Shown here: piece by piece, positions 1-3,000 of the stretch | How positions within the stretch are numbered: the first letter of the stretch is position 1 | How the letters are laid out: each line of letters starts with the position of its first letter | NCBI RefSeq assembly: GCF_003991155.1 | Contig: NZ_CP031297.1 | DNA: 64,000 nt | Direction: 5' to 3' (one strand) | DNA from: Escherichia coli | GTDB taxonomy: Bacteria; Pseudomonadota; Gammaproteobacteria; Enterobacterales; Enterobacteriaceae | Made by a program: the position numbers

Positions 1-3000
1 CGTGCAGCGGCTTGATATTGGACATGGCAACCTCGGTAAATGGTTGATTGACGTGGAAAAACCCGGCGATTTTAGCAGTCGCGCGAAGCGAGTGCCAAAC
101 CGCGGACAACAGAACCGGGCGAACCCGGCATGCCACCGAGATGGGGCGGGCCCGCCGACTTTCAAGGGCCGCACGCGGATGTCCGCCAGGCCCGCCGGAT
201 CGGGGCAGCCGCTACCCTATGCCGGTGAGCGCCCTGATCTGCACCTGTCCCGACGCCGACAGCGCCGAGCGCATCGCCACCGCGCTGGTGGCCGAGCGCC
301 TGGCCGCCTGCGTCAACCTCCTGCCCGGCCTGCGTTCGGTCTATCGCTGGCAACGCAAGGTCGAGGCCGCGGCCGAGGTCCTGCTGCTGGTCAAGACCAG
401 TGCCGAGGCCTACCCCGCCCTGCAGGAACGCCTGCGCCAACTGCATCCCTACGAACTCCCGGAGCTGCTCGCGGTCGAAGCCGCGTCCGGCCTGCCCGAA
501 TACCTGCAATGGCTGGCCGCCGAGAGCCGACCGGTAAACTGAGCCAATGACCGCATCCACGATCCGCCTGCGCCGCTGGCTGGCCGGGCTCGCCCTGCTG
601 CTTGCGCTGCCCGCGACCTCGGCCGTCGCCCAGGACTTCGAACTGCCGCCGGTCGACGAGGTCTTCGTCCTGTCCGCGCAGGCCACCGCGCCGGACCGCA
701 TCGAGGTGCGCTGGCGGATCGCCGACGGCTATTACCTGTACCGGCACCGCACCTCGGTCAAGGCCGATGCCGCCTTCACCGGCGCGACCATGGCGCTGCC
801 GAAGGGCAAGGCCTACCGCGACGAATTCTTCGGCGACGTCGAAACCTACCGCAAGGAATTGCTCGGCACCCTCACCGGCACGCCCGCGGCCGGCGCGAGC
901 GCGACCACCCTGACCGTGAAGTACCAGGGCTGCGCCGATGCCGGCGTGTGCTACCCGCCGCAGACCCGCACCCTGAAGGTCGCGTTGCCGGGCGAAGCGG
1001 GCGCTGGCGGCTTCGGCTGTAAGGCGCGCGGGCTGCATGATTATGTCGTCAAGAACGGCTCTGCCGATCATCCCAACGCCGAGGTGAAATTCGCACTGGG
1101 TGATGTGGTCAACACCATGATCGGCTGCACTAATGGTGAAACGATCATGCTGTGCCACGACACCTCGCTGCCGCGCCCCTATTCTCTCGGCTTTCGGGTG
1201 CAAGGCACCGAGGGGCTGTGGATGGACGTCAACAAGTCGATCTATCTGGAGGGCAAGAGCCCACAGCCGCACCGCTGGGAGCCTGCCGAGGGCTGGTTTG
1301 CGAAATACGATCACCCGCTATGGAAACGCTACGCCGATCTGGCGGCAGGGGCCGGGCATGGCGGGATGGACTGGTTCGTGATCCACGCTTTTGTCGAGGC
1401 GCTGAAGGCCAAGGCCCCGATGCCAATCGACATTTACGACGCGCTGGCCTGGAGCGCGATCACGCCTCTGTCGGAACAATCGATTGCTGAGGGCAATCGC
1501 ACGTTAGATTTTCCCGACTTCACCCGAGGGCAGTGGCGCACCCGCAAGCCGATCTTTGCGCTGAACGACGCCTATTGATCGACGCGATTTAGGCCAAGCG
1601 CACCGCAAAGGCGAAATTGGTAATCTTGTCGGTATCCTTGACGCCCGGCGCGCTTTCGACGCCGCTGGAGGTATCGACCAGCGGCGCTCCGGTGCGCGCA
1701 ATCGCCTCGGCAACATTCGTCGGATTTAGCCCGCCTGCCAGCCCCCACGGCAAGGCACCGCGATATCCGGCCAGCAGCGACCAGTCGAACGCCAACCCCA
1801 TGCCGCCGGGCAGCGCGCCTTTGGGGGTCTTGGCGTCGAACAAGATCAAGTCCGCCGCCCCGGCATAGGCTGCGGCGCGTGCGACATCGCTGGCGCTGGC
1901 GACGGGCAGCGCCTTCCACACCGGCTTGCCAAACCGCGCGCGCAACTGGGCCACGCGTTCGGGCGATTCCGAACCGTGCAGCTGCAGCGCGTTCAGCTTG
2001 GCTGCCACCAGTGCGTCGGCGATGACAGCATCATCCGCATCGACGAACAAACCGACCATGGCGATCTGGCCAGCTGCGCGCGATGTCAAAGCGCCCGCGA
2101 CATTCGACGTAACCGCACGGGGCGACGCTGGATAGAACACCAACCCGGCATAGTCCGCCCGCGCCGCGATGGTCGCATCGAGCGCCTCGGGTGTGCTGAT
2201 CCCGCAAATCTTGATTTTCGCGGGCATGCGGTCAGTCGGGGTTCTGGATCAGCCGCACCAGCGTGCAGTCGGGATCGATCAGGTAGCCGATCCTCAGGCC
2301 GCTCGCCTCCAGTTGCGGAGCTTTGAAGCGCGGCCAGCCGGTGCTTTTTTCCTCGGCTCCCGCCGCGTTCACCAATGCCACCATGGCATCGAGATCATCC
2401 AACCGCAGGCAACAGCCGAACGAGCTCGTAGCTGGGTCGAGGTCAGGATAGGGGAAGAATTCGAGCTGCAAACCGCCGCGCTGCAGGATCATCCAGCCGC
2501 GATCCTTCCAACTCGTCGCAAAGCCCAGCTTCGCATAAAACGCCTCTGTCACATCGAAATCGCGCGATGGCAGATTGGGGGTGACGTGGTCAGCCATGGC
2601 TCAGCGCAGCTTGTCGGCCATGCGGGCCGTATGAGTGATTGCGGCGCGGCTATCGGGGGCGGAATGGCTCATCACGATCATGCTGGCCTTGGGGAACGCC
2701 GCACCAAACGCGCGCGCTGACGCGGCGTAGTGCTCAGTGTCGGCATCACCGAGATTGCCGAGCGACTTGGCCTTGCTGTCCTTGATCAGGCAGCCACCAA
2801 AAGCGATGTCGGTGCCGTCGATCCCAACGGTGATATTGTCACTGGTGTGGCCGGGGCCGGGGTAAAATACCTTGAGCGGGCCAAAGTTGGGCGCGGTTGC
2901 TGGTTCGACCCAGCCATTGGCGGCGAAAGTCAGGCTGTGTTGCGCCGCAACCATCCCCTCTTGCGGGGCAAGCTGGTTCGACAACGCATTGGCATAAGTC

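Follow-up and report, generated by a model that had tools for sequence, protein, structure and literature searches.

The region downstream of blaNDM-1 occupies positions 1-3500 of the 64,000-nucleotide stretch of Escherichia coli DNA analysed here (NCBI RefSeq assembly GCF_003991155.1, contig NZ_CP031297.1), which we call the window, and matches more than 2000 plasmid records at 99% identity or above in a nucleotide search. Our subject is an open reading frame (ORF) in this region, at 547-1578, which papers up to 2025 treat as one gene, the dsbC, dsbD or tat gene of Tn125. The first-pass annotation of this DNA had described it as a two-part chimera, and our analysis indicates an in-frame fusion between the head of a dsbD gene and the tail of a gene for a GH109-type enzyme. 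The features of the locus are given below, where GC3 is the GC content at third codon positions, the left and right blocks are the DNA on either side of the junction, and L004 and L009 are a metagenome contig and a Sphingomonadaceae locus related to the two halves.

547..1578, plus strand: chimeric ORF ("dsbD/tat"), 343 amino acids (aa)
547..1017, plus strand: dsbD-derived head, codons 1-157, the right-hand end of the left block
547..630, plus strand: signal peptide of the DsbD parent, aa 1-28, containing RR, with predicted cleavage between AVA and QD
640..981, plus strand: DsbD_N (alpha) domain, aa 32-145 (Pfam PF11412), with Cys129-x5-Cys135 (YQGCADAGVCYPP)
1010..1015, plus strand: GCTTCG, common to the dsbD parent and the GH109 relatives in the same codon register (parent alignments)
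1018..1020, plus strand: junction codon TGT (Cys158), between the end of the L004 match (1018) and the start of identity with L009 (1021)
1021..1578, plus strand: GH109 / Gfo-Idh-MocA tail, aa 159-343, ending at the native stop codon
1..25, minus strand: 5' end of groES, cut at the window edge (reverse complement ATGTCCAATATCAAGCCGCTGCACG, encoding MSNIKPLH)
213..542, plus strand: cutA (Pfam CutA1, 2.7e-35; RefSeq name cutA; GC3 0.855)
1589..2227, minus strand: trpF, right block, converging on the GH109 tail with a 10-bp spacer
2232..2597, minus strand: bleMBL, right block (GC3 0.754; 85.7% collinear with blaAFM contexts)
2601..3416, minus strand: blaNDM-1, right block up to about nt 3348 (GC3 0.754; blaAFM collinearity over 1675-3348)
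3514..4539, minus strand: intact IS30-family transposase, ISAba125 type

Domain searches placed a DsbD_N domain (E 6e-30, profile positions 3-117 of 119) at aa 32-145 and half of an unrelated Pfam domain, Glyco_hydro_109_C (PF21252; E 8e-37, profile positions 92-186 of 187 only), at aa 156-246, and returned no contiguous native family over the full length. Matches in a PDB sequence search differ likewise, with aa 33-145 corresponding to residues 11-119 of the alpha domain of E. coli DsbD (1L6P; 1JPE and 1VRS match too) and aa 155-343 to residues 250-444 of the 444-aa GH109 enzyme 2IXA (E 6e-67). The NCBIfam DsbD model NF001419 is covered only at positions 12-139 of its 574, and its score is 111 bits where the cut-off is 330. 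Among the matches listed, PF11412 and PF21252 are combined only in proteins from NDM contexts, which are 99-100% identical, or in fragments of these; a contig with the same architecture that was considered as a progenitor (L096) proved to be an ordinary NDM context. RefSeq annotates two partial pseudogenes here, a "DsbD domain-containing protein, missing C-terminus" at 547-921 and a "hypothetical protein, incomplete, missing N-terminus" at 1012-1578.

Base composition divides the ORF at the same place. The head (547-1017) has a GC content of 0.718 and a GC3 of 0.930, while the values for the tail (1021-1578) are 0.602 and 0.753, and third positions differ between the two parts with p = 1.5e-5 (Fisher test). 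The maximum-likelihood change-point falls at nt 1036 when all positions are used (support 1002-1048) and at nt 993 on third positions (support 966-1035); the observed statistic was reached in none of 2000 shuffles. The first-pass annotation had described a very GC-rich N-terminal half with a DsbD N-domain, a remainder lower in GC resembling the C-terminus of a Gfo/Idh/MocA oxidoreductase, and a change of composition near 1000-1030. Each of these points is borne out, with two refinements: homology sets the junction at 1018-1020, and the parent of the remainder is more precisely a GH109-type enzyme.

An unfused counterpart of the head was recovered by protein search. P0121, a 97% identical protein that carries no GH109 domain, is encoded on a contig from an ENA wastewater metagenome (L004, from ERZ965164), on which groEL'-groES-cutA-dsbD follow one another in the order and with the spacing of the window. 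Positions 1-1018 of the window align with 642-1671 of this contig with 9 substitutions and two 6-bp indels, and the blastn match stops at 1018. Compared with pNDM-BJ01, the contig is 99.04% identical over 1671 bp (10 mismatches, one 6-bp gap), and the match again ends at the equivalent of window position 1018. Past this breakpoint the contig carries a further 583 bp of native dsbD (GFGFGKKKGGLFG; GEAGAGAGGFGFGKKKGGLFGLGNADAG, and then a second DsbD_N repeat), and a more distant native relative (L005) extends into DsbD_TM. The named relatives of the head, at 53-84% aa identity, are Lysobacteraceae, Lysobacter, Pseudoxanthomonas, Stenotrophomonas and Xanthomonas, and earlier papers reported a groES 84% identical to that of Pseudoxanthomonas and two ORFs about 70% identical to Stenotrophomonas. 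Judged by these relationships, the head is Lysobacteraceae-like. The 4-bp spacing between cutA and dsbD recurs in both native contigs, and on gene order cutA is taken to be the native upstream partner of dsbD and a member of the left, Lysobacteraceae-like block. A groES annotation is found at the matching place in pNDM-BJ01 and E. coli AR435, and Cpn10 in L004.

Both native contigs have an in-frame stop inside the second DsbD_N repeat, at 1932-1934 in L004 (PYRD*HFG) and at 1457-1459 in L005 (VYFD*VEI). The two stops do not occupy the same codon but are some 10 codons from each other, and beyond them the frame stays open; an assembly error, decay into a pseudogene or some other cause could account for them.

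Alignment to the two parents places the breakpoint at codon 158, nt 1018-1020. T1018 matches dsbD, G1019 also agrees with the second base of the AGC codon that GH109 relatives have here, and T1020 matches neither parent; from nt 1021 onward, the window shares 20 bases (AAGGCGCGCGGGCTGCATGA) with the Sphingomonadaceae locus L009. In translation, the sequence across the join is GFG-C-KARGLH, compared with SFAS-KARGLH in native GH109 homologues. The breakpoint falls in a Gly/Ala-rich linker behind the first DsbD_N domain. The parent alignments show no insertion-sequence remnant between the two parts at the junction, and the join would hold at most 2-3 unassignable bases. The shared GCTTCG at 1010-1015 suggests that microhomology-assisted end joining may have been involved.

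The right parent of the fusion is a GH109 gene of which only the 3' part is left. In a BLASTP comparison the tail is 77% identical to residues 267-454 of a 454-aa protein of Sphingopyxis granuli (locus L006), up to a common stop codon. That protein carries GFO_IDH_MocA at 36-136 and a full GH109_C domain (profile 1-186) at 173-357, and is homologous to 2IXA along its whole length (E 1e-150). About 266 N-terminal residues of the GH109 parent are thus missing from the ORF, namely the leader with its twin arginines, the NAD-binding Rossmann domain and the N-terminal half of GH109_C. Identity alone is uninformative on the lineage of the tail, because values of 69-78% are found alike in Sphingomonadales, Lysobacteraceae, Oxalobacteraceae and Bacteroidota (one genome per species). 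In a neighbour-joining tree of the 185-residue tail, the NDM-region sequence has six Sphingomonadaceae-type sequences as its sister clade (bootstrap 86) and stands apart from all Lysobacteraceae.

Gene order points to the same group. The same six loci (L003, L006, L009, L013, L098 and L099) have the GH109 gene and trpF tail-to-tail, as in the window, at spacings of -7 to +10 bp, and this pair was seen in none of the other 77 non-NDM loci with a GH109 gene that were examined. Encoded as a degenerate DNA pattern, the arrangement matched 6 positives (four native loci and two NDM contexts) and 0 of 77 negatives, and a search of JGI metagenomes with it found only two further loci, both Sphingopyxis-like, with trpF at 52-56%. 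In the window the GH109 tail and trpF both keep complete 3' ends, an outcome that a random breakpoint would rarely produce, and a further junction inside the 10-bp spacer at 1578-1589 is unlikely. Taken together, tree and gene order support a Sphingomonadales affinity for the tail.

Two candidate progenitors of the right-hand side were rejected. P0003 is a secondary NDM variant of 227 aa with a 100% identical tail and a different upstream junction: in Logan assemblies (14 contigs) the tail, from NGSADHPN (window nt 1054, approximately), follows an unrelated 52-aa N-terminus, which shows a further truncation of the module within the GH109 tail. L097, with a trpF at 97%, proved to be an NDM context cut off at window nt 1659.

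We interpret ORF 547-1578 as an in-frame fusion scar, left by one illegitimate recombination between a Lysobacteraceae-type dsbD head and the GH109 tail of the Sphingomonadales-type segment that carries blaNDM, and not as a native gene; our rough probability for this interpretation is 0.88. The left partner would be the Lysobacteraceae-type groEL-groES-cutA-dsbD segment that adjoins ISCR27 in Tn125, broken after dsbD codon 157, and the right partner the last 185 codons of a GH109 gene standing tail-to-tail with trpF on a segment with ble and blaNDM. The length of the ORF would then be the product of a chance in-frame join. If translated from the native cutA-dsbD signals, it would yield an exported DsbD-alpha domain with its Cys-x5-Cys and an attached GH109 fragment. 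A likely vehicle would be stepwise mobilisation by ISCR27, which lies beyond groEL in Tn125 and has been proposed to mobilise adjacent DNA by rolling-circle transposition (PMC8894482, PMC12566650). An ISCR27-carried segment could end arbitrarily, here inside dsbD, and be joined to a GH109 gene by illegitimate recombination, and a later round would take the enlarged segment to the ISAba125/aphA6 junction in Acinetobacter. The data fit such a two-step history, whose individual steps are inferred. The mosaic, multi-donor assembly that had been suggested for the region agrees with the head being Lysobacteraceae-like (99% identity to L004), the tail grouping with Sphingomonadaceae and trpF being of Sphingomonadales type; the Xanthomonas-like affinity applies to the head alone.

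Several observations weigh against this interpretation. On the left, L004 is a short metagenome contig of 2.3 kb that could itself sit on a mobile element. At the junction, with the best GH109 relatives at no more than 73-79% identity, the last bases and the microhomology cannot be fixed. On the right, the donor was not found, the best relatives being 79% identical for the tail and 76% for trpF, and Lysobacteraceae, too, have GH109 homologues at a comparable level (75-78%). Genomes with the tail-to-tail pair have a trpF only 49-56% identical to that of the NDM region, and the closest trpF relatives (73-76%) have no GH109 gene in the three loci inspected. The adjacency of tail and trpF is thus supported by arrangement and composition and not by a matching donor.

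The occurrence of GH109 homologues in Lysobacteraceae leaves some room for a single donor, a Lysobacteraceae genome carrying dsbD and a similarly oriented GH109-like gene that an internal deletion would have fused. Lysobacter maris, Luteimonas and other Lysobacteraceae do encode homologues at 75-78% aa identity, and the Gly-rich motif common to both genes at the junction could aid such an intragenomic deletion. However, the junction coincides with a drop in GC3 from 0.93 to 0.75, and the L. maris homologue has a GC3 of 0.94; the tail groups with Sphingomonadaceae at bootstrap 86 and not with Lysobacteraceae; trpF lies downstream of GH109 in none of the Lysobacteraceae loci; and the named trpF relatives at 70% or more are all Sphingomonadales. 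We therefore consider a single-donor origin quite unlikely.

A further alternative concerns function, namely that the ORF encodes a useful new protein: an exported DsbD-alpha domain recharged in trans by the DsbD of the host, providing periplasmic reducing capacity or, with cutA, metal tolerance, with the tail merely tolerated. It is known that separately expressed DsbD domains can hand electrons to each other in E. coli. In favour of this, the intact, in-frame ORF retains the cutA-dsbD spacing of the native genes together with the signal peptide and the Cys-x5-Cys, and in most plasmids and E. coli genomes that carry the region its identity is at least 99%. This conservation is, however, explained by the very recent spread of a single module, and the existence of the truncated variants P0003 and L097 argues against selection for the ORF; in addition, the tail begins mid-domain and RefSeq treats both parts as pseudogenes. 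A functional neo-protein is on these grounds very improbable. As for a native two-domain family whose contiguous gene merely looks composite, the uninterrupted frame is the sole point in its favour, and we dismiss it as having next to no probability, since each half has hundreds of homologues that continue differently past the junction, the domain combination is confined to NDM contexts among the matches listed, and both the GH109_C profile (cut at position 92 of 187) and the DsbD model (12-139 of 574) are covered only in part.

Comparison with known systems leads to a similar expectation for the product of the fusion. Like DsbD (DipZ), encoded in the cutA-dsbD operon of E. coli, the ORF lies directly downstream of cutA and encodes a signal peptide and an alpha domain with Cys-x5-Cys. 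Unlike DsbD, it lacks the DsbD_TM domain (no PF02683 match) and the C-terminal thioredoxin-like gamma domain (no thioredoxin-type match), and unlike its closest native DsbD relatives it keeps only the first of two tandem DsbD_N repeats; judged by its domains, the product cannot be a working DsbD by itself. Its last 185-189 residues align with GH109 NAD-dependent alpha-N-acetylgalactosaminidase of the Gfo/Idh/MocA superfamily (Elizabethkingia NagA, 2IXA), and they are 77-79% identical to the C-termini of proteobacterial GH109 homologues, with the stop codon position in common. Unlike these enzymes, the ORF has neither the Rossmann domain PF01408 (aa 36-136 in the L006 protein) nor a complete PF21252. 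With the membrane and thioredoxin-like recharging domains and the NAD-binding domain all missing, neither DsbD nor glycosidase nor oxidoreductase activity would be expected of the fusion product, which is most likely inert. A comparable in-frame junction of DNAs of different origin is the aphA6'-'blaNDM fusion at the opposite end of the module (Toleman et al. 2012, as relayed in PMC8894482 and PMC7277208). Both fusions are assembly scars. Selection acts on the aphA6'-'blaNDM fusion, from which blaNDM obtains its promoter and start, whereas no function is evident for the dsbD'-'GH109 fusion.

As to the name "tat", the Tat pathway would not be expected to accept the N-terminus of a polytopic membrane protein like DsbD. 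The leader of the ORF (MTASTIRLRRWLAGLALLLALPATSAVA) is that of the DsbD parent and recurs in native DsbD relatives (P0121 and P0125-P0128). It contains RR in the sequence LRRWLAG, to be compared with the Tat consensus S/T-R-R-x-F-L-K. No Tat family matched the ORF in Pfam or NCBIfam, nor its first 51 aa in NCBIfam, with models that are insensitive, since they also missed the clear leader of the L006 protein (only TIGR02811, E 0.89). A canonical M(N/Q)RR(D/E)FL leader is present in 69 of 73 full-length GH109 homologues, about 447 residues before the stop, and is absent from the ORF. The Tat signal attributed to the ORF in the first-pass annotation is not supported: the leader is DsbD's own, the insensitive Tat models give no match, and the canonical leader belongs to the lost N-terminus of the GH109 parent. 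Sekizuka 2011 (PMC3179503, Table 1) named the ORF after its best BLAST match, a "tat ... signal sequence domain protein" of Brevundimonas diminuta (141/188 aa). The name thus stems from the best match of the tail, whose twin-arginine leader is missing here.

On the other side of the scar, the genes around blaNDM share the character of the tail. GC3 is 0.753 in the GH109 tail, 0.779 in trpF, 0.754 in ble and 0.754 in blaNDM, compared with 0.855 in cutA and 0.930 in the dsbD head. The closest non-NDM relatives of trpF, at 70-76% aa identity, come from Novosphingobium, Croceicoccus and Altericroceibacterium, all Sphingomonadales, and an earlier paper noted similarity of trpF to Erythrobacter sp. 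SD-21 (PMC3356367). The simplest reading of these similarities would be one block, GH109 tail-to-tail with trpF-ble-bla, from a Sphingomonadales-type chromosome, joined at 1018-1020 to Lysobacteraceae-type DNA.

The NDM-like gene blaAFM shares part of this arrangement. In four blaAFM-ble-trpF' contexts (L092-L095, positions 4824-6561), from Pseudomonas aeruginosa and other hosts, a stretch covering bla, ble and most of trpF is collinear with window positions 1675-3348 at 85.7% identity over 1674 ungapped bp. Divergence of this order is far beyond that accumulated by mobile NDM elements, and so the linkage of bla, ble and trpF would predate mobilisation and have been captured at least twice. 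blaAFM, too, is flanked by an ISCR27-like element, which carries that same 3' remnant of groEL at 89% identity, and we infer from this that the ISCR lineage was associated with Lysobacteraceae groEL before either capture. A floR-like fragment lies upstream of blaAFM.

The chromosomal setting of trpF in Sphingomonadales suggests where bla and ble may have stood. Loci of the closest trpF relatives (P0254, P0266 and P0260) have the order purB-pyrF-[variable]-trpF-[variable]-trpB-trpA, and none of the three contains GH109, ble or metallo-beta-lactamase genes; in Sphingopyxis the slot between trpF and trpB is occupied by the GH109 gene. We conjecture that bla and ble occupied the slot upstream of trpF, giving pyrF-[bla-ble]-trpF-><-GH109-trpB-trpA, where -><- marks a tail-to-tail pair. 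The junction at 1018-1020 would then be the far end of a chromosomal segment from the original host of blaNDM, a Sphingomonadales-type alphaproteobacterium of about 62-64% GC and not Xanthomonas, to which groESL-cutA-dsbD' was joined afterwards as ISCR27-attached cargo; we regard the odds on this scenario as even. If it is true, the GH109 tail together with trpF becomes a specific search handle for the blaNDM progenitor. Across Sphingomonadales, the slots of pyrF-[slot]-trpF-[slot]-trpB-trpA hold SIMPL, acetyltransferase, outer-membrane protein (OMP) beta-barrel or GH109 genes (L006, 2868-7143; L086, L088 and L090), and the two variable slots may be a recurrent insertion site.

As an object the chimera is already known, being present in thousands of records, with its split implicit in RefSeq and in precomputed Pfam labels. 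The base-level junction, an unfused left parent at 99% identity, the source of the "tat" misnomer and the Sphingomonadales affinity of the blaNDM-side block were not found in the papers that could be searched, and full-text searches for an account of the chimera or its donors gave none. The exact junction, the unfused left parent and the Sphingomonadales affinity are thus modest additions. In practical terms, they provide correct bookkeeping for a heavily sequenced resistance module: the ORF called dsbD, dsbC or tat consists of two gene fragments, and a function should not be assigned from its name. The scar fixes within three bases where the Xanthomonas/Lysobacteraceae-like DNA stops, and beyond it blaNDM, ble, trpF and the GH109 tail share a common composition and Sphingomonadales affinities, which weakens the oft-repeated account in which the blaNDM progenitor was acquired by ISCR27 "in Xanthomonas sp." What these results chiefly offer is a sharper search image, or synteny signature, for that progenitor.

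Some smaller features of the window remain to be described. At window position 237, in cutA, 6 bp (two codons, TCTGCT) of the native contig L004 are absent, and in the same stretch typical NDM plasmids and E. coli records are apparently 6 bases longer than the window, spanning 1507 instead of 1501 bp. The GH109 tail and trpF converge with only 10 bp (1579-1588) between their stop codons, which leaves no room for a terminator, so that transcripts from cutA and the ORF would collide with those from blaNDM-ble-trpF. The remainder of the window resembles large multiresistance plasmids with mer, chrA, aph(3')-VIa and ISCR1. Finally, the groES-cutA intergenic region contains TTAGCAGTC-N9-GAGTGCCAA at window 72-98, which agrees at 8/9 and 8/9 positions with the consensus of CIRCE, the HrcA operator (TTAGCACTC-N9-GAGTGCTAA); the groESL heat-shock operator seems to have travelled along with the Lysobacteraceae-type block.

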